Shown one piece after another: positions 1 through 63,790 of a DNA stretch of 64,000 bases. How positions within the stretch are numbered: position 1 is the first letter of the stretch; each line of letters opens with the position of its first letter. Source of the stretch: an uncultured Thermoplasmatales archaeon (GTDB taxonomy: Archaea > Thermoplasmatota > Thermoplasmata > Thermoplasmatales > GCA-001856825); the NCBI GenBank assembly GCA_964468585.1, contig CAYXTM010000001.1:108084-172083 (forward strand), given 5' to 3'. The translations under genes were made by a program, and so were the position numbers. The notes beneath the pieces are model-generated. The model was given only the letters and a program-made list of their open reading frames with translations. It was not told where the DNA came from and did no database searches.

Positions 1-673
1 TGGCTACTATTATGGCAATTACGATATAGACATATATCAGGTATGGGTTTCCAGACTGTATGTTTATTTCATATGCCCCGCTTATAACCTGAACCAATGT
101 GTTATTTATCTTTACTTCCACGTTGTATATCCCTGGAGAAAGGGTTCCTGATAACCACTGATATGTTATATTCTGTGTGCTGTTGGAAGAAATGTTAACT
201 ATGGATGAGCCCACATACTTGTTATTAACATAAAATGATACGTTCAGGTCCTTCATTTTGAAATGAGTTGGATTGTAAATCTTTGCGGTAAGTGTGGTAT
301 AGTTGAGTACCTGTACTACCCTTGTTATGTTATAATAAAACACTTGCCCGTTTAGTGTTGCAACCACCTGGAAGAAGAGGAACAAAGTTGTCTGTAGACT
401 GGGAGCTTTTACTGTAAAGTTTTCTGGTGCGAATGTACCATTTAGGTACTGTGGAGATATAGGCGATGCGCCTGTGAGATTGTATCCACTAAGCAAAAAA
501 GCGAGCTTATAATGAGTGAATATTTGTTCTACGTCAACGGTATAATTGAAGGTTGATCCAACTGCCACCTTTGCTGGCCCTGTTATAGTAACCGGACCTA
601 CAGTAGTAATAGAAGCTGAAGCCAATACAGGAAGTAAGATCAATGATATTATCAATATGGGAAATATTTTCAT
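1..673 (-). CDS. Partial CDS (3' end leaves the window): small secreted, membrane-anchored surface protein, uncharacterised
   Basis: Not in the ORF track. My own minus-strand translation from the ATG at 673-671 stays open to nt 1 (224 codons). It begins MKIFPILIISLILLPVLASASITTVGPV, a signal peptide. It has many N-x-S/T sequons, and the last residues LIYVYIVIAIIVA look like a C-terminal TM anchor. Its ATG overlaps the aglB TGA (ATGA at 670-673). Confidence 0.6.
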   Translation of the reverse strand, partial: MKIFPILIISLILLPVLASASITTVGPVTITGPAKVAVGSTFNYTVDVEQIFTHYKLAFLLSGYNLTGASPISPQYLNGTFAPENFTVKAPSLQTTLFLFFQVVATLNGQVFYYNITRVVQVLNYTTLTAKIYNPTHFKMKDLNVSFYVNNKYVGSSIVNISSNSTQNITYQWLSGTLSPGIYNVEVKINNTLVQVISGAYEINIQSGNPYLIYVYIVIAIIVA

Positions 674-3600
674 GTTCTATTCCTCCTTCTCACCATTATC
701 ATGACTGCAACTATAAGAACTAGAACAAACGCTATGGTTCCAGTTAAGTAGCTATATTGTATGACTGCGCTATAGTTCTGAATGCCATATCCCTGAGCAG
801 TAATTTCCTTAAAACTCAACCCCGGAACTGAGGGATAGAGGTAATATACACTTGTATTATTATTGAACTCAACTCCTATTATAATAGGTGTTTTAACATT
901 TTGCAGCAAATAGTTCAGGGAAAGACCTATACTTGTAACATTGGTCTGATCTGGAAGGATAGTGAAGTTGGAATATGTGCCGTTATTTACCAAGACTTTC
1001 ATTCCTTGGGACGTCAAAGTCTGAATGTTCAGTATTGTCACGTTCATTTTGATCTTGGAATTCCCGGTATTCTTAATTGTCATCTGGTAGAATATAGTGT
1101 TTCCAATTACAACTCCGCTTGTGTTTGAGATGGTTATATTCATTCTTTCAATCGATGGTACTGTCACATTTACTGTGATTTGATGATAATTCCCTAGATA
1201 TTGCAAATTCATTCCTATTTGATAAGTACCTGCAGGTTCGCCTTTCGGAACACCAATCGTAGCATTTATTACTCCAGTTCCATATGGCTTAAGCTCTAAG
1301 GTCTTTGTATACACGTTGAAGGTTGATGAGTTAGTTAACTGCAAGTTAATTGGAATATTTGAATTGCTGCTTATGATGATAGGGAAAGATATGTTCTGCC
1401 CAGGATAACCAGTCAATTGCCCGCCTTCTGGTATGATAGAAACGGAGATCTTCTTTACTATCACAAATTGAAGATATGAATATGTTGTGCCAGAAACATT
1501 CACCTGCTGATTCAGAATGAATTCGTTATATCTTCCGTAATAATTCATGTAATAATTTCCGTAAAAGATATAGGTTCCATTTGGAACGTAAAGGACACCG
1601 TTGGAAGGTATATAGAACTTATATTTTCCTCCCAGATATATTGGAGAATTGTAACTGGAATTATTAAGGAACGTGTTATAAACCAATGGATAGGCTTTCC
1701 TCAGCTGAATTGTAACATTTTCAAATGGGGTTGAAATGTTAACACTTCCTACGAATGAGTATCCTCCCTGGTATGCGTAAATACTGTAATTGCCATAGGA
1801 TAATCTGACACTGGTTCCGAAGGGTATAGTGATGTTGTTTGGCTGGATATTAATGTATCCTCCTTTCACTTGTTCGTTTCCAACAAGACCATTTATTGTT
1901 ACATTAGACATAAGGTGCTTTAGAGTGCCATTTAAGTAAATAGTGTTTTGCGAAAACATTGAGATAATTTCTGAGGCAAATATTTCATATGAAGCGTTTA
2001 TCTTTTGGGAGGCATAGACATAATATTCCCCAATGGGAAGATAAATACCGGCTGAACTTGATAATAGGTTAGAATTATTTTCCACAAAAGCCAAAGATGA
2101 GATGGAATTATGTATGGACAGGAAATATGCCTGATGCATGACAGGATACAAGGTCGTATTTCTTGTCAAGTTAATCGTGGTAATGTTGGCAGTGTTATAA
2201 TAATTCGTATAGACCGTATATGTCCCAGGTGTTAACGTAATATTAGATAATGAGCCAATTAATTTGCCCTGACTATAAATCTGAACATTGCCGTTGGTAT
2301 TGACATTAAGATTCGCATATACATTAACGGGAATTTCGAATATCTGGTAATTGTATCTTGGTAGCACGTCTATCTGTGTCACTGGTGATGTTGCTATGAT
2401 ACCTGGTCCATCTATCTTTAATGTGTAGTTACCTGGTAGAAGAGTTAGGTTTTCAGTATATTTCGTAAAATTCAAAACGTAATTTGCCGGACCATTTAGA
2501 TATATTGTGAAATTGTAGTTAAAGTCTGGAAGGAGTTTAATCTCAGATATTACGGGGGATGAATGCAATGTTATGTTGAGATTTGACTGCGAATATGAAA
2601 ATCCAATGGTCTTGTATATAATATTTGAAACAACGCTACCGTTCTCTAAATAAATTTCATAACTGGACCCCTTTTGCATAACCTCGTAAAATACTTCCTG
2701 TTGACCGGAATAAGCAGTAATAATTCCCGGCTGACTATTATAAATGTGTCCGGTTATGGTATACCCAGGTAGAGCGTAAATTGATTGGTTATAGTAGGGT
2801 GAGAACACTGATACCTGGCTTTCAGAAACGTAGGTACTACCGTTCCTAGTAAAATAGGCTGTAATATCATAAGAACCGTATGGTATAAAAGAGGTAAAGG
2901 TGCCATTGGGATTTGTCGTATACTCCAGTTGCAAGCCATTGCCCATTATCTGTACCGGTACACCTGATGCTGTCTTGTTCCCGATATATACTGTACCGGA
3001 AAATACAGCGCCACGGGACAATATGGGTGATAATTGTATGGAAGAATTCAGAGTAACCGTTGTCATATTCATATAATAATTTCCATTTCTTACCACAGTG
3101 GTTGTCACTAGATATATCGAAGGAGGTAGATATGCGGAAGCCGCATTTCCCTCGATACTAAGAACGCCAGAATATGAAGTATTCAGCATATCCTGGTAAG
3201 TAGCACTAATTAATTTGTATTGTTGGCCTAATGATATATTCAAGAAATAAAATCTCTCATATGTTATATTCAATGTGACATTTTTCTTATTTGAAATATT
3301 CACCATACCCGAATATCTGTATGGGCCATTGCTTGCGGATATGTTAAAAAGGCCGGTAGGCAAGAAAATCTTTGATGATGAATTGGTGGTATTCAACGTT
3401 GTGGTAAAATTCGTCCTTGAAATAGTAACTGAATTGATATTTTGATTCTGGAATTTATCGATGAAATTAAGTTTTACAGCAGCGAAAGGTACAGGAATAT
3501 CTTTAGATGTTGAATTTGAATTTATAGTCACATTGGCCACATTATTATACCAATAGCCGTCAACATATGCAGAAATCTCATATTGATATGGAGGCAAATC

Positions 3601-6600
3601 GGTAATTGAATATGATCCATTACCTGTTGTGTTCACATAAACCGAATAATTTTCAGTAGAATTATAAAATTTCAATTCTCCATTAACTGGAACATCAGTA
3701 TTTGGAATGAAGAAATTCGTGGCAGCTAGATTGAAAAACAATGTACCGGAAACAGTGTGAGAGTTGATCTGGAAATTTTTAGTTATAATCCAATCAGGCT
3801 GACCTCCGGATGAGTATGCTTCTCTGTTTGCCTGGGCCTGGGTTATCGTGATGTTATATGTTTGCAGTATGTTATTATCTTCCATAAAGAGAGCATTATA
3901 ACTACCTGTTGAAATTATAATGGTATCATTACCCGCTACAGCATACAGTTGATAATATCCTGAACTGTTTGTTACAACGGTCTCGTGAGGTATCCCGTAT
4001 TGATCATCAATTGTAACCCTAACTCCTGCAACTGGCATGCCAGATGAATCTGTCACTCTTCCCTGTATGATTGCGCCCGGGTAATATTCAACAAAGACTA
4101 CATCATTTGGCAAGACACTTGATGCTGGGGGATTCAAGTCAACGGTCCCTATATGGTTGACCAGATAATAATACCCTTGCTGGAGAGAAACAGGTTGCCA
4201 TGCATTTGAATGATTCTGGTAATCTGTATAAGGATTCCAGAATACTGTCTTATAAACTAATTCAAAGTTTGGCATTCCCCATGCCTGCATCGGATAATAA
4301 TACTTCAGACTGGAAGATATACCAGGTATCGCGTTACTTGCCCCAACAACTGATGGTGGATACCCAATAAATACCCTGTAGATGGTGCTGTTATAGAACA
4401 TCGGCTGATAATTTATATTATAGCTTGTGGCAGTATCCCCCGGAGGGAAATCCTGAAGTGGGTATGTGTTTCCGTTGATATCAGTTACGGTTATGTTATA
4501 AAAATCAATGGGCACAATTTCTCCTTGTACATCTATATACTGAAAATCTCCAAGGTATGCAGGAGCATAGAATATACCTGTATTTACTCCTGAAAATGGG
4601 AATAGTCTGTAGTCAACAGCCAAGTAGCTCATGTAAAAGCCACTTATATTCTCTAAAGCCTGATATGTGTCTATAAGGGTATTTAATGGGTATGTATTCG
4701 CTAAATAATGTTCAATGAGGATATACTTTGCATCGCCAGCTTGAATATCTTGGTAAGGACCGTAATAGGATTCGTTAGCATAAATCTGAGGTATATATGA
4801 AGGCCCATTCTTCTCATAATTTATTATCTTATTCATAGCTTCTGGACCCAGAAATTCCGTTATCACAGACTGAAGAGTTGAGTTATTCAACTGATTATTC
4901 TGATTGTAATAATCCAAAATCCTAGCTATCATAACCGCTATGATTTCAGATTCATTCTGGGCCATTAAAATTTGAGCTGATGGATAAATACCATCTTGGA
5001 AATTATCTGCCAATACTGGATGCTGGCCTTGTTCTAGAGTTTGAAAACCATAGTCCCACCAAGATATGAAAGCAGGCCTTTCATTTGGTGGATATTGAGC
5101 ATCTTGGTTCTTGAACCAATCTAGTGCCCTCACCCATGCCGAATTGGGCAAGTCGAGAGAAACCCCGAATGCACCCAAATAGTATGGGGGCGTATAATTA
5201 GCTGGCCTCAGGAATGAGGGTGTAGCATTATATATTTGCCTATCGTATTGTGTCTTATTATTATATGGAATGCCTGAATCTATGGCGTAGAATGTGGCCG
5301 GGACTATTAACAGGAAGATTACCATCAATATTACAGCAATTTGAGATATTCGCAATTCCCTCAGTGATGACCTTGACACCTCTCTTCCCTTTATCTTATC
5401 AATTGTCTCATGCCATCCTAATCTATTGAATGCTTCATATAATACAAAAGCAGTCAGAATACCTGTTGCAGATGCTCCGAAATAAAGGAATTTCGAAGCT
5501 ATCATTGAAATAAATATAATACCAGCGGAGTAGAATAAAATCAAGGTCATTTTAAAATCTGGCGATTTTATCCATTTGTAAATAAGGATACCAATACCGA
5601 CAAGGGACGCGAAGAACATGAATGGATCAAATTCCATTATATCTTCTCCAAGAGGGAGAGCCTGAGCCTCAGCAATAGTATTGTAAATTTTGTTCTTAAT
5701 GAAGTAGTGCTGACCTGAAATTATGTTCTGTAATAATGAATTGTCCTTGAAATATATAATTACAATAGCTATAAGGAGTAGTATGATATATGAACCAAGG
5801 GAAAGTACCCATGGTTTTCTATCCAATGTTATGAGGAAAATAGCAGATATTATTAACAACAACCAGATGATTGCAACAGGCACCCACCTGTCCAGGAAAC
5901 CAGTTTCATAATACCATGGAAGGCTCAATAAGAGTCCCTCAGAGTAGAAAATTGCAGAATATAAAATACCCATACTGCCTTTCCTTTTTATGGTGTTTAT
6001 TATCAACTGAATGACTCCTACTCCAGCGATGATAAGAATGATGGAGATTGTACCAACCCAAGTGAGCATAGAACCTGCAAGGCTAGCGCCACCCAAAAGG
6101 GAGTATAATAATGATATTTTATTTGTCTTAAATGAATTCCTAAATTTTGAGAGGATAGTATCTCCCTCACTTTCTTTATATGTATCCACTGCCTTAAGGT
6201 AGAAATAAATCATGGCAACAGCAAAGAGAGCAGTGAATATATCGAATAAACCTATAGACGCCACTGATTTCATCAGGGTTAGAGGGCTCAGGGCAGCTAA
6301 GATAGCCCCTATTAGTCCCACTTTTTTATTGAACACCTCTTTCCCCAGTAAGTAGGTTGGAAAAACAATGAATGCGCCCCCAATGGAAGTTTCCAGTAGA
6401 AACATGGTCATGGTGGATTTGTATATCCCTCCGAGGAAAGGTGAGAACCCATAACCTAGCAGTACTGCTAACCAATGGAAGAATGGAGGTCTAGGATTCT
6501 CCAAACCTATAGGATAGTTCAAAAGTGGATCAAATAATAGCTGGTGATGGGTCTCCAGAATATATTGAACAATCCTCATATTATAATATGCGTCTGACCC

Positions 6601-6774
6601 TCCAGAGACTGCGAAGTTCCCTCTAACCGCAACTCCCAATATGTAGAAGGAACTCAAAAACAGAGAGAGCACAAAGGAGAGTATTAGTGTTATGGAAATG
6701 TAGTTCCTCTGTAGCCTCTCTTTAAACTTGTCTATCCTCGTTGTATTACCTTCTGAACCAGCCATTAAATCCAC
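670..6774 (-). CDS. aglB: Archaeal oligosaccharyltransferase AglB (STT3 family) with a very long C-terminal extracellular extension and a terminal TM anchor
   Basis: 2034-aa ORF. The N-terminal ~500 aa are polytopic membrane. The WWDYG catalytic motif (ISWWDYGFQ) is at aa 572-576 (nt 5047-5061). From ~aa 895 there is a CarboxypepD_reg-like segment (GRVTDSSGMPVAGVRVTIDDQYG) followed by >1000 aa of beta-rich, N-x-S/T-dense sequence. It ends IAFVLVLIVAVMIMVRRRNRT (TM plus basic tail). Confidence 0.85.
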   Translation of the reverse strand: MDLMAGSEGNTTRIDKFKERLQRNYISITLILSFVLSLFLSSFYILGVAVRGNFAVSGGSDAYYNMRIVQYILETHHQLLFDPLLNYPIGLENPRPPFFHWLAVLLGYGFSPFLGGIYKSTMTMFLLETSIGGAFIVFPTYLLGKEVFNKKVGLIGAILAALSPLTLMKSVASIGLFDIFTALFAVAMIYFYLKAVDTYKESEGDTILSKFRNSFKTNKISLLYSLLGGASLAGSMLTWVGTISIILIIAGVGVIQLIINTIKRKGSMGILYSAIFYSEGLLLSLPWYYETGFLDRWVPVAIIWLLLIISAIFLITLDRKPWVLSLGSYIILLLIAIVIIYFKDNSLLQNIISGQHYFIKNKIYNTIAEAQALPLGEDIMEFDPFMFFASLVGIGILIYKWIKSPDFKMTLILFYSAGIIFISMIASKFLYFGASATGILTAFVLYEAFNRLGWHETIDKIKGREVSRSSLRELRISQIAVILMVIFLLIVPATFYAIDSGIPYNNKTQYDRQIYNATPSFLRPANYTPPYYLGAFGVSLDLPNSAWVRALDWFKNQDAQYPPNERPAFISWWDYGFQTLEQGQHPVLADNFQDGIYPSAQILMAQNESEIIAVMIARILDYYNQNNQLNNSTLQSVITEFLGPEAMNKIINYEKNGPSYIPQIYANESYYGPYQDIQAGDAKYILIEHYLANTYPLNTLIDTYQALENISGFYMSYLAVDYRLFPFSGVNTGIFYAPAYLGDFQYIDVQGEIVPIDFYNITVTDINGNTYPLQDFPPGDTATSYNINYQPMFYNSTIYRVFIGYPPSVVGASNAIPGISSSLKYYYPMQAWGMPNFELVYKTVFWNPYTDYQNHSNAWQPVSLQQGYYYLVNHIGTVDLNPPASSVLPNDVVFVEYYPGAIIQGRVTDSSGMPVAGVRVTIDDQYGIPHETVVTNSSGYYQLYAVAGNDTIIISTGSYNALFMEDNNILQTYNITITQAQANREAYSSGGQPDWIITKNFQINSHTVSGTLFFNLAATNFFIPNTDVPVNGELKFYNSTENYSVYVNTTGNGSYSITDLPPYQYEISAYVDGYWYNNVANVTINSNSTSKDIPVPFAAVKLNFIDKFQNQNINSVTISRTNFTTTLNTTNSSSKIFLPTGLFNISASNGPYRYSGMVNISNKKNVTLNITYERFYFLNISLGQQYKLISATYQDMLNTSYSGVLSIEGNAASAYLPPSIYLVTTTVVRNGNYYMNMTTVTLNSSIQLSPILSRGAVFSGTVYIGNKTASGVPVQIMGNGLQLEYTTNPNGTFTSFIPYGSYDITAYFTRNGSTYVSESQVSVFSPYYNQSIYALPGYTITGHIYNSQPGIITAYSGQQEVFYEVMQKGSSYEIYLENGSVVSNIIYKTIGFSYSQSNLNITLHSSPVISEIKLLPDFNYNFTIYLNGPANYVLNFTKYTENLTLLPGNYTLKIDGPGIIATSPVTQIDVLPRYNYQIFEIPVNVYANLNVNTNGNVQIYSQGKLIGSLSNITLTPGTYTVYTNYYNTANITTINLTRNTTLYPVMHQAYFLSIHNSISSLAFVENNSNLLSSSAGIYLPIGEYYVYASQKINASYEIFASEIISMFSQNTIYLNGTLKHLMSNVTINGLVGNEQVKGGYINIQPNNITIPFGTSVRLSYGNYSIYAYQGGYSFVGSVNISTPFENVTIQLRKAYPLVYNTFLNNSSYNSPIYLGGKYKFYIPSNGVLYVPNGTYIFYGNYYMNYYGRYNEFILNQQVNVSGTTYSYLQFVIVKKISVSIIPEGGQLTGYPGQNISFPIIISSNSNIPINLQLTNSSTFNVYTKTLELKPYGTGVINATIGVPKGEPAGTYQIGMNLQYLGNYHQITVNVTVPSIERMNITISNTSGVVIGNTIFYQMTIKNTGNSKIKMNVTILNIQTLTSQGMKVLVNNGTYSNFTILPDQTNVTSIGLSLNYLLQNVKTPIIIGVEFNNNTSVYYLYPSVPGLSFKEITAQGYGIQNYSAVIQYSYLTGTIAFVLVLIVAVMIMVRRRNRT

Positions 6775-53659: not shown

Positions 53660-54811
53660 ATGTTAGCCAAAATAAGATTAAATAATTATTTATCTTCCTA
53701 TGTTGTGCTTTACCTAATCAGATATTCAGAGATAGGAACAAAAGGGGATAACAGATCATTCTTTGAAAATCTACTGGCTAGAAATCTCAAGGCTAAATTT
53801 AATGAAAAGGGGATAGATGCAACTGTTAGTTTGGAAGAGGCGCGCCTCACAGTTGAATCTGAAGTTGATGTTTCTAATATACTATCAAAAACATTCGGAA
53901 TATCCAGCTTTTCACCTGCTACTAGACTGAAATCTGATCCAGATGAGATAATATCATTTTTCAAAAAATTGAAGGTAAGCAAAAAATTCAGGGTCACTGT
54001 CAATAGGAGAGATAAAAATTTCCCCTTTCAGAGCTCATATTTTGCATCGATGCTCGGGGAAATAATTCTTAATGAGAATAAAGAAGCCTCTGTGTCCTTA
54101 GAGAATTATGACATAAATTTTGGGGTTGACATTGGGAAAAAGTGGACATATTTCTACGATTCCGTCATAGATGGACCTGGGGGTTTACCTGTCAGATCCC
54201 AAGGAAGAGGTGTAGTTCTAATCTCAGGGGGAATCGATTCACCAGTTGCAGCATATTTAATGATGAAAAGGGGAATGGAAATAAGTTTGATCCATTATTT
54301 CCAGAGTTCAAGACTGCTAGAGAAGGTTTTCAGGAATAAGGAACTTCTTGAGGAATACAGCCCATATCCAATAGATATCAAAATTGTGGATCACAGAAAA
54401 ATGCTAGGTCCGACCATATTGAAATTGAGAAAGGAAGGTAAGGAGAGTTGGACATGCATATTTTGCAAGAATTATATGTATAAAGAAGCGGAAAAATTTG
54501 CAAAAGAAATAGGAGCTAAGGCTATCGTAACTGGGGAAGATTTGGGACAGGTTGCCAGCCAGACTCTTGATAATCTAAATACCATTGAAAGCGATTTTCA
54601 TTTCCCAATTTTCAGACCTCTTATAGGGTTTGATAAAGAAGAAATTGAGAGAATATCTGAAAAGATTAGGGCATTCGATATATTTTTATCGGTCCCGTCC
54701 TCTTGCGATTGCAGGTTTTTACCATCGAGGCCGAAAACCCGTAGTGATGCATCTGAATTCCTGAAGTTAAAATACAAAATATCAGGTGAAGCAGATGCTA
54801 ACATCCATTAG
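53660..54811 (+). CDS. thiI: tRNA 4-thiouridine synthase ThiI (THUMP + PP-loop, no rhodanese domain)
   Basis: IRYSEIGTKGDNRSFFE is the ThiI N-terminus, and the PP-loop is VLISGGIDSPVAAYLM. The start is uncertain (ATG 53660 or GTG 53705), because TATA-like sequence overlaps the first ATG. Confidence 0.85.
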   Translation: MLAKIRLNNYLSSYVVLYLIRYSEIGTKGDNRSFFENLLARNLKAKFNEKGIDATVSLEEARLTVESEVDVSNILSKTFGISSFSPATRLKSDPDEIISFFKKLKVSKKFRVTVNRRDKNFPFQSSYFASMLGEIILNENKEASVSLENYDINFGVDIGKKWTYFYDSVIDGPGGLPVRSQGRGVVLISGGIDSPVAAYLMMKRGMEISLIHYFQSSRLLEKVFRNKELLEEYSPYPIDIKIVDHRKMLGPTILKLRKEGKESWTCIFCKNYMYKEAEKFAKEIGAKAIVTGEDLGQVASQTLDNLNTIESDFHFPIFRPLIGFDKEEIERISEKIRAFDIFLSVPSSCDCRFLPSRPKTRSDASEFLKLKYKISGEADANIH

Positions 54812-55712
54812 AGTATATTTTCTCGGGACTGGTGGATCCTGGCCAACTCCCATTAGAGGAACAGCTGCAGTAGCAGTGAGATTGGATGATGAGGCCATTT
54901 TGTTCGATTGCGGTGAGTATACCCAAGTCAGGCTGATGAAGAGTTCACTTTCTCTGATGAAGATAAGTAAGATATTCATAACGCATTTTCATGGCGACCA
55001 CTTTTTGGGCCTTCCGGGATTAATTCAAACCATGAGTTTATTTGGTAGAAAGGAACCTCTTGAAATATATGGACCAAGAGGTGCTGTAGAAATCATATCT
55101 AGTCTACTTTCAATAGGATATTTTGACTTGCCTTTCGAAATAAAAGTTGGTGAACTCTGGGAGGAAGGGGAGCTTGATTTTGGCGAATATAAAATAATGT
55201 ATATGAAATCTAATCACACTGTTCCCTCAATATCATATTCGGTTGTTGAAAAGGATACTATCAAATTCGACGAAGAAAAGATAGAGAAGGTAAAAATTCC
55301 TAGAAAATTACTCGAGAAAATTAGAAAAAATGGCTATGTTGAGTATGAAGGTCGGATAATAAAGGCAGAGGATGTGTCTTCCTCTATAAGAAAAGGCAGA
55401 AAAATATCTTATTCTGGGGATACCAGGAAGGACCTGAGATTGACAAAATTATTCGAAAATTCAACCTTACTTATTCATGAAGCAACTGGCGATATGACAT
55501 TGGTCGATAAGGTGAGAACTTACGGTCACTCCACCGGGCAAGATGCAGCGGAAATTGCTGAACTGTCAAAGTCAAGGAGATTGGTCCTAATCCATTTTAG
55601 TCCGAGGTACGACGATATTTCTCCTATCGTAGAGGAGGCTAGGAAGATTTTTAAAAACACTGAGGCATCTAATGACCTGCTTGAATTGGAAGTGAAACTA
55701 TCAGATGTTTGA
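54786..55712 (+). CDS. rnz: Ribonuclease Z (tRNA 3' endonuclease)
   Basis: VYFLGTGGSWP and the metallo-beta-lactamase motif THFHGDHFLGLPGL. 308 aa. An alternative start is ATG 54795. Confidence 0.9.
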   Translation: MKQMLTSIRVYFLGTGGSWPTPIRGTAAVAVRLDDEAILFDCGEYTQVRLMKSSLSLMKISKIFITHFHGDHFLGLPGLIQTMSLFGRKEPLEIYGPRGAVEIISSLLSIGYFDLPFEIKVGELWEEGELDFGEYKIMYMKSNHTVPSISYSVVEKDTIKFDEEKIEKVKIPRKLLEKIRKNGYVEYEGRIIKAEDVSSSIRKGRKISYSGDTRKDLRLTKLFENSTLLIHEATGDMTLVDKVRTYGHSTGQDAAEIAELSKSRRLVLIHFSPRYDDISPIVEEARKIFKNTEASNDLLELEVKLSDV

Positions 55713-56598
55713 ACTTGATATATACGATGCATTTTATAAACTCTTGGAACAAGTTCCAGAAGGTCGCGTTACGACCTATGGAGATATGGCCGTTGCACTG
55801 GGGGATATAATAGCATCTCGTGCGGTTGGAGAGATGCTATCTCAAAACAGGGATCCTGCGCGTTATCCTTGCCATCGTGTAGTTAAATCTGATGGTTCGC
55901 TTGGCGGATTCACGCATCCACTTGGATTAGACGAAAAAGTAAGAAGATTAAAAAGAGAGGGCATAGAAATAGAAAACGGAAAAATAAGGGATTTCCAAAA
56001 GATAAGGTTTAATGATTTCATAACAGACTTCCCACTCAAGAAATTCAGAAACTGGGCCAATTCCCTTACAATTCAGGATTCCTCTGATATTCCAACTTGT
56101 ATTAGGGCCATGGATGTGACTTACATTGGGGACATGGGGATCGGAGTAGGAGTCACATTTGGTGAAGAAATACTCTATGATTTATTCATTAGCAAAGTAA
56201 AGTCACCTTACATTCCAAATTACCTCTATCTTAGGGAGGGTAGAATATATGAATCACTTGTCAGAAAGGATTGCGTAAATGTGATTGATGGAAATGGGAT
56301 GCTTCATAGGGATTTCAGAGGTGTGGCAACCATTGTAGGAATTAATAAGGGTCTAACCACGATTGGTATTGCAAAGTCTCTCCTTGAGGGAGATGTGAAG
56401 GATAAGAGGATATTCATCCATGGTATTGAGGTAGGGATTATTGAAGGCAAATATGCAATATCTCCAGGAAATAAGATATCTCTGGATAAAGCATATTCTA
56501 TCCTTACAACCGACAAATTTTTTCCCCAGACTAAGTATCCAGATGCTATAGGCAGGAGACTGAAAAATGAAATATTGTCTGCTAGAAATAGCATATGA
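55705..56598 (+). CDS. nfi: Fusion protein: O6-alkylguanine-DNA alkyltransferase C-terminal domain + endonuclease V
   Basis: The N-terminal ~85 aa carry the MGMT DNA-binding/active-site domain (VPEGRVTTYGDMA...YPCHRVV, PCHRV Cys intact). The C-terminal ~200 aa are EndoV (AMDVTY, DGNGMLHRDFRGVATIVGI). From memory, the same fusion was characterised biochemically in Ferroplasma acidarmanus. Confidence 0.85.
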   Translation: MFELDIYDAFYKLLEQVPEGRVTTYGDMAVALGDIIASRAVGEMLSQNRDPARYPCHRVVKSDGSLGGFTHPLGLDEKVRRLKREGIEIENGKIRDFQKIRFNDFITDFPLKKFRNWANSLTIQDSSDIPTCIRAMDVTYIGDMGIGVGVTFGEEILYDLFISKVKSPYIPNYLYLREGRIYESLVRKDCVNVIDGNGMLHRDFRGVATIVGINKGLTTIGIAKSLLEGDVKDKRIFIHGIEVGIIEGKYAISPGNKISLDKAYSILTTDKFFPQTKYPDAIGRRLKNEILSARNSI

Positions 56599-57409: not shown

Positions 57410-58150
57410 TCAAATTTTACCTTCTTTCTTTAATCTTTGCATAATTATCCAATATCTTGTGGACAGATAGTTGACAATCTTCATTATCTGTGTTAAATTT
57501 TCTTCAGAATTTGAACGGAGCTCAACCATGTTTGGAAAATTATTCAATTGAGGGATTACCCTGAATAATATTATGGTTGATTTATTATTCACATCTGATT
57601 TTCGTTCACTTCTTAAGACTGAATTAATTGGAAAATTAAACTTGAATTTTTGCATATCGAAATGTAATTTTTTATTGGTGATTAACAATACTCCATATCC
57701 ATTTTTGTTAATGTTATTAAATATCATCAATAAATCGCCATGAATTGATACTGGGACTTCGTCATTTCCGATATTGAAGTGTTTCAAAACATCATCATTG
57801 ATTGAGAGTGGAGAAGAAGAAACAGGAAAGAGTTTCTCGATTTCTTCAGAGCCAATTGATGGTTCGCCTAGTGCAACTAATGATCCGCAATTACTGCATA
57901 AAACTATGTTTCCTGTAGGGGTACCCGTCAATGGGGTATTACAAACTGGGCAGTTTGTATTTGAAAAATTATTTGAGTATGAAGTACCATAATTAGTGCT
58001 TGTCTCCGTTGAAAATGATAAATTCTTATTACTAAAACTATCATTTGTATAGGTATATTGATATGATGAATTATCTAAAGGTGACCCACATCTGCTACAA
58101 AACCTTGCGAAATTTTCATTTTCATGGTTACATTTAGGACAGATCTTCAT
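57410..58150 (-). CDS. Double zinc-ribbon protein with a C-terminal PH/GRAM-like domain (tentative)
   Basis: MKICPKCNHENENFARFCSRCGSPL (C-x2-C-x10-C-x2-C). An S/T/N/Y low-complexity linker. A second ribbon CPVCN...CSNCGS. The C-terminal ~130 aa include GYGVLLITNKKLHF, resembling bacterial PH/GRAM folds. Confidence 0.6.
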   Translation of the reverse strand: MKICPKCNHENENFARFCSRCGSPLDNSSYQYTYTNDSFSNKNLSFSTETSTNYGTSYSNNFSNTNCPVCNTPLTGTPTGNIVLCSNCGSLVALGEPSIGSEEIEKLFPVSSSPLSINDDVLKHFNIGNDEVPVSIHGDLLMIFNNINKNGYGVLLITNKKLHFDMQKFKFNFPINSVLRSERKSDVNNKSTIILFRVIPQLNNFPNMVELRSNSEENLTQIMKIVNYLSTRYWIIMQRLKKEGKI

Positions 58151-58380
58151 ATTGTATTTAATGCACTTTCTATTATTAAATTATATTCATGATGTAAAAG
58201 GTCTTCCCTTTCCTTGTTAATTCACATCATATAGCATTAGTTAAATAAAATTTATACCCGATTAGAACGATCAAATTGAAAATAAAAAAATAAGCATATG
58301 TCCCGAACACTACCATAAATAAAATGGAAAATAAAAAGGCGATTATAGTTAATTTCTTTCAGAAATAAATGAATTAAACG

Positions 58381-59244
58381 TTATTTATCTTCCTTTTTAT
58401 TTTCAATATTCCCTTCCTTTATAATCTCACTTAAATTCATTTGACCCATTGGGAGAACATACATATTGAAATATGGCTTTCCAAGGAACATATTAGTGGC
58501 AGCAGGGTCCGATTTTAGAGACATTATTTCCGAAAGTCTTGCCCTTATCGCCATATTAATATCTAGTCCCATGCTGGTGAACTGTACTATCCTCTTCATT
58601 GTTTCGTCCTCTGGTTCAATTCTGACTATTCTGCTGATTATGAGGTTTATCCCTAATTCACCCAACGTCTGTCTAAGAGATGCTGCGACAGCGTCGCTTA
58701 ATTTGTGTAAATTCGCATACAGGTCTTTGATTGAAATCAGATTAAGTACTTGTGATACAGATTGGTCTATTATGGGAGAAACATATTCTGATAGATTTCC
58801 TACAGTATAAACTAGACCGGCCAATTGTACATTTTGTAAAAGCTTAACAGGATCAGATACCTGGAAATAATAGGCCACCTCGTAAATTAAAGGTATAAGT
58901 TCAGAAGTTTGTGATACACCTCGAGTCCTCGCCTCAAATCTTGCCATAGAAAAGAATATAGCCTCAACTGTCCAAGGAACATTTCCGCCATATCCGAGCC
59001 TTGCGAACACATTCGCAATTGGACTGTTTGGAGTGTTCAGGTCGTATGGACCTGGTTCATATACTTGCTGTACCTGACCCTGAATCCTAACTATTGCCTT
59101 TTGATTCGATTCTACTATCAATCTTGACCTAGTCCTTATATCTACGTTATGATCTCTCCAAATAATTACACCTGGTCCCAACGCATCTTGTCCGTTTTCC
59201 ATTAAGGTTCTTACTACGGTCCTAAAAACTACGCCAGAACTCAT
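58381..59244 (-). CDS. SPFH-superfamily protein of the Band_7_1 / YdjI (COG4260-like) type, without TM or zinc ribbon
   Basis: SRLIVESNQKAIVRIQGQVQQVYEPGPYDLNTPNSPI...LGYGGNVPWTVEAIFFS follows the Band_7_1 N-terminal pattern as I remember it. No hydrophobic helix. 287 aa. Confidence 0.6.
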   Translation of the reverse strand: MSSGVVFRTVVRTLMENGQDALGPGVIIWRDHNVDIRTRSRLIVESNQKAIVRIQGQVQQVYEPGPYDLNTPNSPIANVFARLGYGGNVPWTVEAIFFSMARFEARTRGVSQTSELIPLIYEVAYYFQVSDPVKLLQNVQLAGLVYTVGNLSEYVSPIIDQSVSQVLNLISIKDLYANLHKLSDAVAASLRQTLGELGINLIISRIVRIEPEDETMKRIVQFTSMGLDINMAIRARLSEIMSLKSDPAATNMFLGKPYFNMYVLPMGQMNLSEIIKEGNIENKKEDK

Positions 59245-59248
59245 ATTA

Positions 59249-59749
59249 TTATCTTACCTCCGGTGGCAGAAATAGATTCATTCGCTTATTGAACATATCC
59301 CGTAGATATCGCAGGTTTTTCAGAATATCTTTTAGATTTTCAGTATACTGCTCTGCTAAGTTCTTTGATTCGCTAATAATTTCAAAATCATATTGCAATA
59401 TTTGGTTCAATATATTTACATCCATTTTATATCTATCATGAAAATTAAACGTGCCTGTAGGGGCTCCAGTTAACTCCTGCACGAATGTCCTTCCTTCCAT
59501 AAAAATTTCTTCAAAGGTAGAGATCGTCTCGTCAAAAGGATTTTGCTTCGAAATTTCCTCTTCTCGAATTTTCAGCTTATCCATTAGCTTTTCTATATTT
59601 AATCTAATGGCTTGTCTAACTATGGCATCATCTTGTTTTATTATATCGCGTTCTTTGTACCCCTTGAAACCTGGCAGCAATAGAAGAAGCTTTTCATAGG
59701 GTGTCATTTTTGAATCTATGATTCCTGCCATACTTAATACTAACTTCAT
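59249..59749 (-). CDS. Hypothetical all-helical protein (166 aa), operon partner of the SPFH gene
   Basis: Its stop lies 4 nt upstream of the SPFH start. The sequence is charged and helix-prone (DIIKQDDAIVRQAIRLNIEKLMDKLKIREEEISKQ). No TM and no recognisable family. The start is ambiguous (M1, M7 or M15). Confidence 0.5.
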   Translation of the reverse strand: MKLVLSMAGIIDSKMTPYEKLLLLLPGFKGYKERDIIKQDDAIVRQAIRLNIEKLMDKLKIREEEISKQNPFDETISTFEEIFMEGRTFVQELTGAPTGTFNFHDRYKMDVNILNQILQYDFEIISESKNLAEQYTENLKDILKNLRYLRDMFNKRMNLFLPPEVR

Positions 59750-59940
59750 TTATTATAAAAATATTTCTTTTTAAACCTATGAGTACCATGATGTAATGAA
59801 TAAAAAATCAAAATGCTATGGCACAATTGAATGCCATTTTGGATAATATAGCCCACTATCATAGGAGTCGCTAATGTAAATTTAGCTCTTTTATGAGAGA
59901 TTCAACAAATCTTTTATATTTGACTTCCTTGGTATTACGT

Positions 59941-60474
59941 ATGAAGTATTGTCCGAAATGTGGCACGCCAAATCCGGATGATGCAGCTTTTTGCGCTTCA
60001 TGTGGTTCACCTCTACCTTTGACTTCTACCGCACAAAAACCAAGCAATAGTACGACTGGGGGAAGTATGCAACAACCACCTCAGCAATCACAATTTGGAA
60101 ATTATAATCCCTCATCATCTGATCTGATAGTTGTAAGTACACCTTATATTCCCGGCTATAAAATCACAAGGGTAATTGGATTCACTTGGGGATTGATTGT
60201 TCGGTCTAGAGGACTTGGTGGTAACGTGGTAGCATCCCTTAGAACCATCGCTGGAGGGGAAATAAAAGAATATACGCAGATGTTGGATCAAAGTAGATAC
60301 GAGGCGTTGGAAAGATTAAAACAACATGCAAAGACATTAGGAGCAAATGCTATAATTGAAGTGCGATTTGATTCGTCCGAAATAGGACAGGTGATGTCTG
60401 AAATCCTTGCCTATGGAACAGCTGTCCTTGTGGAAAAGTCAGATGAACCTGCTCAATCCGTTTCTCTGATTTAA
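59941..60474 (+). CDS. Zinc-ribbon + YbjQ (UPF0145/DUF74) domain protein
   Basis: MKYCPKCGTPNPDDAAFCASCGSPL, then a P/Q/S linker, then the YbjQ core (IPGYKITRVIGFTWGLIVRSRGLGGNV...GANAIIEVRFDSSEI...AYGTAVLVEK). The track ORF starts at 59893. The ATG at 59941, placing the ribbon at the N-terminus, is more plausible. Confidence 0.75.
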   Translation: MKYCPKCGTPNPDDAAFCASCGSPLPLTSTAQKPSNSTTGGSMQQPPQQSQFGNYNPSSSDLIVVSTPYIPGYKITRVIGFTWGLIVRSRGLGGNVVASLRTIAGGEIKEYTQMLDQSRYEALERLKQHAKTLGANAIIEVRFDSSEIGQVMSEILAYGTAVLVEKSDEPAQSVSLI

Positions 60475-61142
60475 TTTTAAATTCTTTTACATTTTTTCTA
60501 TAAAATTATAATAAACTATATGATTAATTCAGTTAAATATTGCATTTCAATATGAATAGAAATGTTATTTTTAGGACAATGGCTCGGATATCGGAACTAT
60601 CCGATAAATAGCAAGATGCTTCCATTTGAAATCATTCTTTCATCATGAACTCCTCCATCCTCTATTATACATTATTCTCAGAATTTTCCAGATTATACTT
60701 CCTAAAAAATTGGGATGTTTGGTTCTCCTTAATTATTTCTACAATCCAATAAGATTGAAATCGCAATTGACTGTTATAATTCTCTCTTACTATTTTTTAT
60801 AACTTGGTATGCTATCAATTACTCAGTAAGGAAAATTTGAATATTTTCTCCATATGGACTTTCATTCATATAATAAGTATTGGAAAGGAATTCAATTCAT
60901 TCATTAGATATTTTATGTCTATAATTTTTTAAAGTTTGTGCATAATTTTAGATCTCAATCTAGAAATTTATTATTGTTTTAAAACTTAAATTTTTATTTT
61001 GTAAGAATTTTTCACGGCTATAAAAAAATTGATGAAATTGTCTCAATATTTTTAAATAATTATTGTATCATTTTCAATTATAGAATTATCTTCTAGAAAT
61101 CTATTTATATGACATAATTAATAATTATATTGGTAGATTGAA

Positions 61143-62705
61143 ATGGGCGAACATCGCAATCACCGAATGCTTGCCATAAGTGTTCTTGTCTGGATCCTAA
61201 TTCTTGGCATTTCCATTCAGGGTTTACATGCATCGGGTATCTCCTCTTCCATAAACCAATTTAGTCCAGTAACTCCAGAAGTTCTAAATGCTTCTATAGA
61301 AAATCAATCGTCAACGGTTCAATTCAATAGTGGTGGGAGTCTCTACTTCTATACTGCAGTGGATGGAGGGGGAGTTTCTTTGACGAACCCAAGTTTCAAT
61401 GTCCAATCAATCGTTGTAGACGGCAACGGATTTGTTTCTGCAGAAGCAGGCTATTCCACATTAAATAAGGGCAGCGTTAATACCAATGGGGCGGCATATT
61501 ATGCCATAAGTGGTGTTGAGATCGGAAGCACCGCTGGAATAAACACATCCCTGATCCAAGAAACAAATATAGCTTCTAGTTCTAACGGTTCATATGGTGC
61601 TAATTATGCTAACTTGACCTTCCAGGTTGTAGCCTCTAACTCTCTTGTGGTGGTGACTGCGGCTGGATCATCGAACGCTAACCCACACTTCACCTCCAGC
61701 TTTAGCTTAAATGTTCTAGATATGCTGAGCTCAACTGTATCAATCATTCAAGGTTATTCTGTTGTTAATGCAGGATCATATAATGTTTCGGTATCAATGA
61801 CTAATGTTGGTACGAATCCTGATGGAAGTTCTGTCCTTCTACAGGTATATGTCATCCCTCCTGCAAATTTTGCGCCTGCCCAAAAATATCCTGTTTATTT
61901 TAAAGAGAGTGGTCTTCCCTCTGGTACAACATGGCATGTAACATTGGGTAATAAAACTGAATCATCAAGCAACAATACAATAGAATTTAATGTTTATAAT
62001 GGCACATACCACTACTATATTCATCCCGTTAATAACTTATATCCATCACCTGAGTCCGGAAACGTAACTATAAATGGTGGTGTCGCTACAGTAGGAGTTG
62101 CCTTTTATCCTCCCATGGAATATTCAATATCGTTCGTCCCTAATTCCAATATTCAAAATGTGGAATGGTGGGTAACATTCAATGGCACAACAAAATATTC
62201 CAATGGCTCAGCTGAGATAGTATTTTCAGCGGTAAATGGAACCTACACCTATTCTATTGGAGTAGAGAACGGATATAATGTAACTCCCTCATCCGGCCTG
62301 ATCGTTGTAAACGGAAGTTCTGTCATAACCTCTGTTTATATAATTCCAAAACTTTTCACTGTCATAGTAACCGAATCAGGTCTTCCCCCTGGAACAACTT
62401 GGTCAATTACGGTTAATGGAAACCAGTATTCCTCACAGAACAATACAATCATATTACATCTTGCTGACGGCACATATACGATAACCATAAACCCTGTGCA
62501 AGGTTATAGCCCGTCTCCATCGAAACTTAAGGTATCTGTAAATAACGAGAATTCTCAAGTGAAATTTGATTACCTTTATCAGTCACCAGCATCCCTTTCA
62601 ATGATATATTCGCCTTCCATTCTACTTGCTGTTTCTTTGATTGTGTTCCTCATCTGTGCAGCTTTCGTAATGGCCTTAATAAGAGGTGGTAGAAATGAAT
62701 TATAA
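61143..62705 (+). CDS. Surface protein: signal/anchor, ~215-aa N-terminal domain, three GLPxGTTW-type beta-sandwich repeats, C-terminal TM anchor
   Basis: LAISVLVWILILGISIQGLHASG acts as the signal. The repeats are listed separately. The C-terminus is ILLAVSLIVFLICAAFVMALIRGGRNEL. Sequon-rich. Confidence 0.7.
   Translation: MGEHRNHRMLAISVLVWILILGISIQGLHASGISSSINQFSPVTPEVLNASIENQSSTVQFNSGGSLYFYTAVDGGGVSLTNPSFNVQSIVVDGNGFVSAEAGYSTLNKGSVNTNGAAYYAISGVEIGSTAGINTSLIQETNIASSSNGSYGANYANLTFQVVASNSLVVVTAAGSSNANPHFTSSFSLNVLDMLSSTVSIIQGYSVVNAGSYNVSVSMTNVGTNPDGSSVLLQVYVIPPANFAPAQKYPVYFKESGLPSGTTWHVTLGNKTESSSNNTIEFNVYNGTYHYYIHPVNNLYPSPESGNVTINGGVATVGVAFYPPMEYSISFVPNSNIQNVEWWVTFNGTTKYSNGSAEIVFSAVNGTYTYSIGVENGYNVTPSSGLIVVNGSSVITSVYIIPKLFTVIVTESGLPPGTTWSITVNGNQYSSQNNTIILHLADGTYTITINPVQGYSPSPSKLKVSVNNENSQVKFDYLYQSPASLSMIYSPSILLAVSLIVFLICAAFVMALIRGGRNEL
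61887..62573 (+). repeat. Three tandem ~73-78-aa protein-domain repeats within the surface protein (61887-62120, 62121-62354, 62355-62573)
   Basis: The units align by eye. Unit 1: YPVYFKESGLPSGTTWHVTLGNK...NGTYHYYIHPV..YPSP. Unit 2: YSISFVPNS..NVEWWVTFNGT...NGTYTYSIGVENGYNVTP. Unit 3: FTVIVTESGLPPGTTWSITVNGN...DGTYTITINPVQGYSPSP. Confidence 0.75.
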
Positions 62706-63573
62706 TTATCCTCAGTACTCTCAACCAAGTACAAAGAAAGGGAGTAGAATCAAAATAGGACTACTTATAGTTGCAATTGGCCTACTTGGTGGTGCCATTC
62801 CAACATTAGGCGCAGTCCTCTCATTTTTGGTGTTGATTGGTGCAATAATTGTGTTTTTGGGGGCAAGGGATTTATCTAATACATATAGGAAATTTACAAC
62901 TATTTCCCTTATTTTAATTTTTATAATGATTGTAGTTGAGCTATATGCATCAATAAAAATGATAACGACTATGTCATCGCTTGCAAATATGGGAACGATC
63001 CCATATTCATATATCATAAAAATAATTGATCCATTCATCTTTTACATTTCAATAGCTTATATTCTGTTAGGTGCTTCACTACTTCTCATATCCTATCCCA
63101 TATATTTTAAGAATACCAGGTTCATACCTTGGGCTATATACGCCCTTTCATTCATTATTTTCCTAGCGGAAGCATATTCTCAGATGGTTGCACTCAATAA
63201 GATGTATTATCAGAATCTCACAATCTATAATGTTGGAGTCTTTACCAATGCATCTTATGGATTGGATGATGGTGCAGGAATCTTCATGTTTCTATGGGCA
63301 ATTGCTATATTCATTGCTTATTTTTATTCTAGGAGAAGATTCCCAAAAATAATACCTCAATTTGGTCCGTCTCAGCCTATGCCAGACCAATATTATGCTC
63401 AGAATCAGCCCTTCGAATCTCGCGTTCCTCAAAACGCTCCTCAAAATATTGACCAAAACACAACAGGTCAAGCAAATCTTGGTCTGCAAAATGGTAAATA
63501 TTGCCCCACATGTGGCACACTAAATGCACCTGAATCTAAGTTCTGCGTCAGGTGTGGATCCAGGCTTCAATGA
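62695..63573 (+). CDS. Polytopic membrane protein with a Q/P/N-rich tail and a C-terminal zinc ribbon
   Basis: About six hydrophobic helices, then PQFGPSQPMPDQYYAQNQPFESRVPQNAPQNIDQ, ending KYCPTCGTLNAPESKFCVRCGSRLQ. The track start is GTG 62686. The ATG at 62695 is preceded by GAGGTGGT (SD-like) and overlaps the upstream gene by 11 nt. Confidence 0.7.
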   Translation: MNYNYPQYSQPSTKKGSRIKIGLLIVAIGLLGGAIPTLGAVLSFLVLIGAIIVFLGARDLSNTYRKFTTISLILIFIMIVVELYASIKMITTMSSLANMGTIPYSYIIKIIDPFIFYISIAYILLGASLLLISYPIYFKNTRFIPWAIYALSFIIFLAEAYSQMVALNKMYYQNLTIYNVGVFTNASYGLDDGAGIFMFLWAIAIFIAYFYSRRRFPKIIPQFGPSQPMPDQYYAQNQPFESRVPQNAPQNIDQNTTGQANLGLQNGKYCPTCGTLNAPESKFCVRCGSRLQ

Positions 63574-63718
63574 CCATTATACTTTAATTTGATTATTTAT
63601 AATAAATTTATTATTATCAATATTTTTAGATTCTTCGCCATAAATCTCCATCAAGAAATCGTAGGATGACTGAAAAAAGATTTAACAAAATACTATAACT
63701 TCTGGATAAGTGCAGGAG

Positions 63719-63790
63719 AGGGTAGGTGGGGATTCGAACCCCAATAAACGGGATCTGCAGTCCCGCGCATCGCCGCTCTGCCACCTACCC
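63719..63790 (-). tRNA. tRNA-Cys (anticodon GCA)
   Basis: The reverse complement folds as follows. Acceptor stem GGGTAGG/CCTACCC with discriminator T (U73, a Cys identity element). A 3-bp D stem GCA/TGC with a G13:A22 mismatch. Anticodon stem CGGGA/TCCCG with loop CTGCAGA. T arm TGGGG-TTCGAAT-CCCCA. Confidence 0.85.

Follow-up and report, generated by a model that had tools for sequence, protein, structure and literature searches.

In a 64,000-nt stretch of the genome of an uncultured acid-loving archaeon (hereafter, the window), six genes at positions 57410–63573 form a block in which three genes encoding zinc ribbons of the same type surround a gene pair for an SPFH protein and a small helical protein, here called its partner. 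This arrangement, first pointed out in the initial annotation of this DNA, was confirmed by open reading frame (ORF) calls, Pfam and a motif scan. The reverse strand carries the genes for a soluble 246-aa protein (57410..58150), identified by the same three approaches, the 287-aa SPFH protein of the COG4260 type with Band_7 and Band_7_1 domains (58381..59244), and the partner, called at 160 aa (59249..59731; a 166-aa ORF extends to 59749). The forward strand carries the genes for a ribbon–linker–YbjQ fusion, called at 177 aa from MKYCPKCG (59941..60474; ORF from 59893), a 520-aa protein predicted from hydropathy and sequons to be a surface glycoprotein (61143..62705), and a 295-aa polytopic membrane protein with about six transmembrane (TM) segments and a C-terminal ribbon (62686..63573). 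Since only 4 nt separate the partner gene from the SPFH start codon downstream and the end of the 520-aa gene overlaps the start of the 295-aa gene, the block contains two operon-like gene pairs; the YbjQ fusion gene is divergent from the partner gene and lies about 200 bp away.

The three ribbons belong to the Zn_Ribbon_1 family (PF13240), for which the Pfam gathering cut-off is 25 bits. The family matches the N-terminus of the 246-aa protein (nt 58088–58141) with 31.6 bits, the YbjQ fusion (nt 59950–60003) with 38.3 bits and the C-terminus of the 295-aa protein (nt 63502–63555) with 28.0 bits, and the x10 spacing is exact in all three. The ribbon sequences quoted in the initial annotation (CPKC-NHENENFARF-CSRC, CPKC-GTPNPDDAAF-CASC and CPTC-GTLNAPESKF-CVRC) are present exactly in the translated ORFs, and the PF13240 scores agree with its view that a single ribbon family is joined through low-complexity linkers to different modules. 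Their likeness had been overstated: the spacing is identical, but sequences described as near-identical share 12–14 of 24 positions. A second four-cysteine ribbon in the 246-aa protein, CPVC-x14-CSNC (nt 57887–57952, aa 67–90), had been missed, and the Pfam family DZR also matches this protein in two stretches.

Comparison with related genomes revealed ribbon genes next to the SPFH–partner pair in the window genome and in a single sister genus (loci L013, L014, L015 and L114–L117, referred to as type A), but in no other. The type-A blocks begin with two divergently arranged genes encoding a ribbon joined to a four-TM domain (ribbon-4TM), the first on the reverse and the second on the forward strand, followed by the partner and SPFH genes on the forward strand and by the six-TM protein with a C-terminal ribbon (6TM-ribbon) and the glycoprotein on the reverse strand. 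There are thus three ribbon genes per block in both the window and type A. The two ribbon-4TM paralogues have 17 of 24 ribbon positions in common. The type-A loci share synteny with one another over 20 kb and were therefore treated as one observation. Only four genes are common to the 64-kb window and the 20-kb type-A loci, namely those for the partner (46% identity), the SPFH protein (81%), the 6TM-ribbon protein (48%) and the glycoprotein (46%), and their order and orientation differ between the two. The 6TM-ribbon orthologues have the same architecture as the 295-aa protein and lie beside the SPFH pair, which the glycoprotein orthologues also adjoin in L013–L015 and L114–L117. This four-gene core within 2 kb in two otherwise non-syntenic contexts, maintained despite sequence divergence, provides moderate evidence for a link of the SPFH pair with the operon for the glycoprotein and the 6TM-ribbon protein.

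The pair itself is found far more widely. More than 15 other genomes carry it without ribbon neighbours: in sister Thermoplasmata it is flanked by the L3 ribosomal operon and NMD3, with no ribbon gene adjoining; in Marsarchaeota the SPFH gene is followed by NfeD or a peptidase and again no ribbon neighbour is found; and the Thermoproteales and Sulfolobales loci likewise have none. The co-occurrence anticipated in the initial annotation therefore recurs in type A, where ribbons flank the pair again, but not in most pair-bearing genomes. Judged from these loci, this archaeal SPFH system does not generally come with ribbons.

To assess the clustering of ribbons, a six-frame scan of ORFs of at least 60 aa was used. 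It detected four genuine CxxC...CxxC motifs in the 64-kb window, all of them within the block, and none in the remaining 58 kb. A background of approximately 194 kb of non-redundant related Thermoplasmata DNA, composed of the rest of the window, the type-A flanks, sister-clade loci and YbjQ loci, contained zero PF13240-type ribbons; its four-cysteine motifs occur only in ribosomal proteins, NMD3, DnaJ and TnpB. With the 95% upper bound on the background rate, at least three ribbons would fall within 6.2 kb with a probability of about 1.3e-4; statistically, the clustering is genuine. The window ribbons share 12–14 of 24 positions with one another, 10–15 with the ribbons of the sister-genus block and 7–12 with unrelated PF13240 ribbons from soil. 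Recent duplication or gene conversion was rejected, as no DNA-level repeats were found between the ribbons; from their sequences, they look like an old lineage-specific set of paralogues rather than recent copies.

The SPFH protein scores 68.1 bits for Band_7 and 64.5 bits for Band_7_1 (cut-off 24). A Kyte–Doolittle scan found no hydrophobic segment or membrane hairpin in it, in keeping with a soluble protein, and no TM segment in the partner, the 246-aa protein or the YbjQ fusion either. The SPFH protein belongs to a tight archaeal subfamily (47–85% identity) with members in Thermoplasmata, Marsarchaeota, Sulfodiicoccus, Vulcanisaeta, Caldivirga and Thermocladium. The 63 homologues found measure approximately 165–336 aa and contain Band_7 and Band_7_1 domains only; several carry the COG4260-style JGI names 'Putative virion core protein' or 'membrane protease subunit'. 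No cysteine motif is present in the window SPFH ORF or in any homologous SPFH ORF, and a C-terminal ribbon is absent from all of them. The missing ribbon that the initial annotation remarked on in this copy is therefore real, but it is a trait of the whole archaeal subfamily (63 of 63 homologues) and not a local peculiarity.

About 16 loci have the partner gene next to or close to the SPFH gene; they come from five lineages: Thermoplasmata, Marsarchaeota G1, a metagenome-assembled genome assigned to 'Methanobacteriota', Thermoproteales and Sulfolobales. Alignment of the partner proteins reveals a conserved N-terminal motif, LPGF(K/R)GYK..D.I(R/K)QDD, followed by a four-helix bundle. AlphaFold 2 (AF2) modeling from an alignment of 41 sequences places the helices at residues 31–63, 69–89, 105–127 and 133–152 (pLDDT 82.4, pTM 0.79). 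No Pfam family matches the partner, including PspA_IM30 and Snf7; the NCBIfam family NF047596 (LIMLP_15305_fam, from Leptospira) matches 32 of the 41 members with a best E-value of 6.9e-15, which implies bacterial relatives. Kinship with PspA, ESCRT-III or BAR proteins was rejected: the best sequence match in the PDB, a BAR domain, is not significant (E=0.09), and the best Foldseek matches against the PDB (E of 0.35 at best) are generic helical bundles, with none to PspA, Vipp1 or ESCRT-III.

In Crenarchaeota, the core pair is accompanied by a third gene, encoding a 4-TM protein of 138–148 aa without a Pfam family. The gene is present in Sulfolobus, Sulfodiicoccus, Caldivirga, Thermocladium, Vulcanisaeta and locus L020, and is absent from all Thermoplasmata loci examined. 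The resulting partner–SPFH–4TM operon, in which the partner measures 158–175 aa, is found in Sulfolobus acidocaldarius (L112, 6001–7838), in Sulfodiicoccus acidiphilus (L113, 6001–7831), in L020 (5119–6925) and in L024, L025 and L026. No description of it was found in the literature searched, nor was anything informative on archaeal Band_7_1 operons or on the function of LIMLP_15305. Kinship of the crenarchaeal 4-TM protein with the TM domains of ribbon-4TM or 6TM-ribbon proteins was considered and rejected, as hhalign aligned only the ribbons with each other. In Marsarchaeota G2 (L005–L007, 8001–10367), a long NfeD gene comes after the SPFH gene, and upstream no partner was detected; the SPFH subfamily thus pairs with different accessory genes by phylum. 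Genes for ThiI and an EndoV-like protein adjoin the partner gene in three Vulcanisaeta genomes (L022, 5854–8635; L030, 5877–8647; L031, 4515–7279), and genes of the same kinds occur in the window at 53660–56598, 1–4 kb from the block. With an identity of only about 34%, joint horizontal transfer of the block with these neighbours was rejected. One of the window genes (55705–56598, forward strand) encodes a 297-aa fusion of the DNA-binding domain of methylated-DNA methyltransferase (PF01035) with endonuclease V (PF04493). At the other end of the window, the reverse strand contains a very large ORF of 2034 aa (670–6774).

Two of the three ribbon proteins of the window appear, on the homologues retrieved, to be one-off inventions of this genome, and the grouping of ribbon genes is confined to one narrow lineage. 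The 246-aa protein consists of a ribbon, a linker rich in S, T, N and Y, the second ribbon and a C-terminal domain of about 150 aa without a recognised fold. A search of 5.8e9 proteins returned only the protein itself, and its C-terminal 152 residues had no match among 1.84e9 representatives at full HMMER sensitivity. The 'PH/GRAM-like' label given to this domain in the initial annotation is unsupported: no homologue exists in these searches, Pfam is empty at E<=10, and the AF2 single-sequence model (pLDDT 34) is unusable. Its β-β-β...β-β-long-helix pattern is compatible with a PH-like fold and is not evidence for one. Being an ORFan, the protein cannot belong to a conserved system, and the place that a ribbon–'PH' protein had been given in a modular system is not borne out.

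The YbjQ fusion contains a full-length YbjQ_1 domain (PF01906, 126.9 bits, profile positions 2–103 of 103). Its ten nearest relatives are 77–90% identical over the domain, measure 127–128 aa, lack a ribbon and start just before the domain; on this basis, ribbon and linker were added recently, upstream of the ancestral start, in the window lineage. The loci of these relatives contain neither SPFH nor partner genes and share no synteny with the window. The YbjQ ribbon is closest to the ribbons of the type-A ribbon-4TM proteins (15 of 24 positions, 33 bits), which are encoded at the same position upstream of the partner gene, a similarity consistent with in-situ replacement of the module. Independent ribbon–YbjQ fusions were detected in soil organisms (7 of 80 metagenome loci), from which it follows that the PF13240 module is promiscuous; a literature search on such fusions returned nothing informative.

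In the 520-aa glycoprotein, a 464-aa ectodomain that contains 16 N-x-S/T sequons lies between an N-terminal signal or TM segment and a C-terminal TM anchor; the protein matches no Pfam family above the cut-off. It contains a recurring protein motif, '(E/Q)SGLPxGTxWxV...NGTY', and its gene contains a 47-nt DNA repeat with 70% identity between copies 468 nt apart (61962–62476). In the 295-aa protein, about six TM segments were counted by inspection; the N-terminus and the tail are rich in K and R, which places the C-terminal ribbon in the cytoplasm, and the tail is also rich in Q, N and P. All ribbons of the block are thus cytoplasmic.

Long AT-rich spacers had been described as setting the block apart. 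No spacer of the window is longer than the 668-bp one, yet gaps elsewhere measure 632, 569 and 569 bp and AT-richness is general, so that the spacers are weak evidence for a distinct block. An Rfam scan of the long spacers detected no RNA element; the sole match is a tRNA-Cys directly after the block (63718–63790, reverse strand). Promoter and terminator scans of the spacers stayed at shuffle level, with bacterial-type models that are irrelevant for archaea. A reading of the block as a defence system was rejected, as the PADLOC anti-phage defence models gave no match to the six proteins at E<=0.01.

We tentatively interpret the block as a conserved archaeal SPFH module that has been elaborated in one lineage and is functionally linked to the ribbon-tailed membrane protein and the glycoprotein. 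The core of the module would be a co-transcribed pair, the four-helix-bundle protein of about 160 aa and the soluble Band_7_1-type SPFH protein, for which the crenarchaeal 4-TM protein is the presumed membrane anchor. In the sublineage of the window, the 4-TM gene is absent and the pair appears to travel with the glycoprotein and 6TM-ribbon operon instead. SPFH protein and partner may assemble a scaffold beneath the membrane, and the ribbon-tailed membrane protein, with its extracellular partner, could tether or regulate this scaffold. Around the pair there would be a changing set of genes that join a ribbon and a disordered linker to a variable module: a 4-TM domain in the sister genus, YbjQ in one window gene, and a second ribbon with an orphan domain in the other. 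Local duplication of a resident ribbon-linker gene and swapping of modules probably gave rise to these variable genes. As all block ribbons are cytoplasmic, the ribbon-linker proteins could reach the same sub-membrane site, and a working connection between the ribbon proteins and the SPFH pair is plausible on the genomic evidence.

Several observations weigh against this interpretation. The linkage is seen in no more than two independent genomic contexts, with L013 and L114–L117 counting once. Sister Thermoplasmata have the pair with neither the 4-TM gene nor ribbon neighbours, so a ribbon-bearing anchor is either not generally required or encoded elsewhere. The hhalign comparison gave no homology between the TM domains of the ribbon proteins and the crenarchaeal 4-TM protein. 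The partner resembles PspA or ESCRT-III in neither sequence nor fold, and the Pfam search found no TPM (YdjH-like) or NfeD domain in the block.

It is almost as likely that the ribbon-linker genes are fast-evolving, lineage-specific paralogues that shuffle modules, and that the SPFH pair merely lies in the same variable region. The divergently arranged type-A ribbon-4TM paralogues, with their 17 of 24 common ribbon positions, fit this account, as do the two window ribbon proteins unique to this genome and the rearrangement of the locus between lineages, with a tRNA at its border here and an IS110 transposase in L013. So do the more than 15 genomes with the pair but no ribbons, and the very common, promiscuous nature of PF13240, which has been fused independently to YbjQ in soil organisms. 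Such bystander clustering is harder to reconcile with a four-gene core kept within 2 kb in two contexts, given that three of its proteins are only 46–48% identical (SPFH 81%); chance synteny is uncommon at 46–48% protein identity. It also leaves aside that all sampled flanks have zero ribbons and that a single lineage saw YbjQ gain both its ribbon and its position beside the pair. A mobile or integrated island beside the tRNA, carrying surface and membrane genes clustered through co-transfer rather than joint function, is very unlikely. The block is immediately followed by the tRNA-Cys (63718–63790), its counterpart in L008/L013 has an IS110-family transposase at its border (L008, 11743–12672), the flanks differ between lineages, and GC content falls to 0.25–0.33 in parts of the block. 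However, the low-GC stretches are those between genes, where the DNA is AT-rich throughout the window; a search of the window turned up no integrase, att-like direct repeats or terminal inverted repeats; the PADLOC scan was empty; and the insertion sequence element is missing from the syntenic L114–L117 loci.

The initial annotation had suggested a shared ribbon that docks onto the SPFH scaffold or its partner and thereby recruits interchangeable effectors, here YbjQ, the orphan domain and the membrane domains, a mechanism that we consider unlikely. In its favour, the same ribbon family occurs on all accessory genes of both block types, in each case in the cytoplasm and on a flexible linker; the block ribbons resemble each other at 10–15 of 24 positions, compared with 7–12 for unrelated ribbons; YbjQ acquired a ribbon only at this locus; and in bacterial SPFH proteins of the COG4260 type, such a ribbon is part of the protein itself (PMC11237479). 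Against it, the contacts mapped in Bacillus subtilis are YdjH–YdjI, YdjH–PspA and YdjG–YdjH, not ribbon–SPFH (PMC8581546), and the ribbons display no concerted evolution. The SPFH pair is 75–81% identical across lineages with and without ribbon neighbours, and this high conservation regardless of ribbons argues against a co-evolved ribbon-binding surface. A bolder form of the idea, in which a PF13240 ribbon on a disordered tether would, in this Thermoplasmata lineage, be a portable address tag that delivers arbitrary modules to the sub-membrane SPFH/four-helix-bundle scaffold, with new clients made in situ by fusion to a resident cassette, seems improbable still. Of the modular system as first proposed, what stands is that the ribbons are real, of one family and clustered beyond chance; a conserved, general system is not what the comparison reveals.

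Proteins that join a PF13240 ribbon through a linker to another module are, to our knowledge, among the commonest uncharacterised prokaryotic architectures, and we know of no general role of the ribbon. The gain of a ribbon coinciding with relocation beside an SPFH scaffold offers a concrete, testable hypothesis for such a role. If the address-tag idea were true, recruitment by the ribbon would be a natural and evolvable system, and a very common orphan ribbon would receive its first assigned role. Independently of the ribbons, the analysis exposes a conserved archaeal operon of helical partner, Band_7_1 SPFH protein and 4-TM protein; its presence in the genetically tractable Sulfolobus acidocaldarius makes the function of a cytosolic archaeal SPFH protein directly testable.

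The nearest studied system is the pspA-ydjGHI (samGHI) locus of B. subtilis, which encodes PspA, YdjG with an NTF2-like domain, YdjH with a TPM domain and YdjI, a Band_7_1 SPFH protein. YdjI, which is cytosolic, depends on YdjG and YdjH, both membrane proteins, for its membrane localisation (PMC8581546) and recruits PspA (PMC8581546; bioRxiv 10.64898/2026.02.06.704340). In YdjG, two ribbons are combined with a TM segment and an uncharacterised domain; the ribbon of YdjI is C-terminal (PMC11237479). By analogy, the scaffold mechanism proposed above plausibly parallels the recruitment of YdjI by YdjG and YdjH. In its overall logic the block resembles that locus: it combines a soluble Band_7_1 SPFH protein, a small helical cytosolic partner and a ribbon-bearing membrane protein, with the ribbons in the cytoplasm, and the 246-aa protein, with two ribbons followed by an uncharacterised domain, resembles the cytoplasmic part of YdjG. 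It differs from YdjG in having neither a TM segment nor a detectable NTF2-like domain, and the ribbon membrane protein of the window differs in its six TM segments, its C-terminal ribbon and its pairing with a large glycoprotein. The block has no PspA/ESCRT-III homologue, its partner being an unrelated four-helix bundle of the LIMLP_15305 family; none of its six proteins matches TPM_phosphatase; and its SPFH protein, unlike YdjI, has no ribbon of its own. Lacking PspA, TPM and the SPFH ribbon, and with membrane components of another kind, the block is not a YdjGHI system. An SPFH protein with coiled-coil and ribbon domains has also been described in archaeal ESCRT-like 'Meth_adaptin' loci (PMC10936438).

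As in the stomatin–NfeD operons (Pyrococcus PH1511/PH1510), the SPFH gene is coupled, through translation or transcription, to a dedicated partner gene. Pfam, however, found no NfeD in the block, the partner is helical rather than an OB-fold protein or a protease, and the SPFH protein lacks the N-terminal membrane hairpin of stomatins; the block is therefore not a stomatin–NfeD operon. With the crenarchaeal partner–SPFH–4TM operon it shares gene order and orthologous core genes (partner approximately 30–35% identity, SPFH approximately 47–60%), but the window has no 4-TM third gene, and ribbon genes are absent from the crenarchaeal loci. The ribbon proteins themselves resemble generic PF13240 ribbon-linker proteins, such as TcaA or PspC with an N-terminal ribbon, in family, ribbon position, linker style and promiscuous fusion to many modules; what distinguishes the block is the gathering of several ribbon genes at one conserved SPFH pair.

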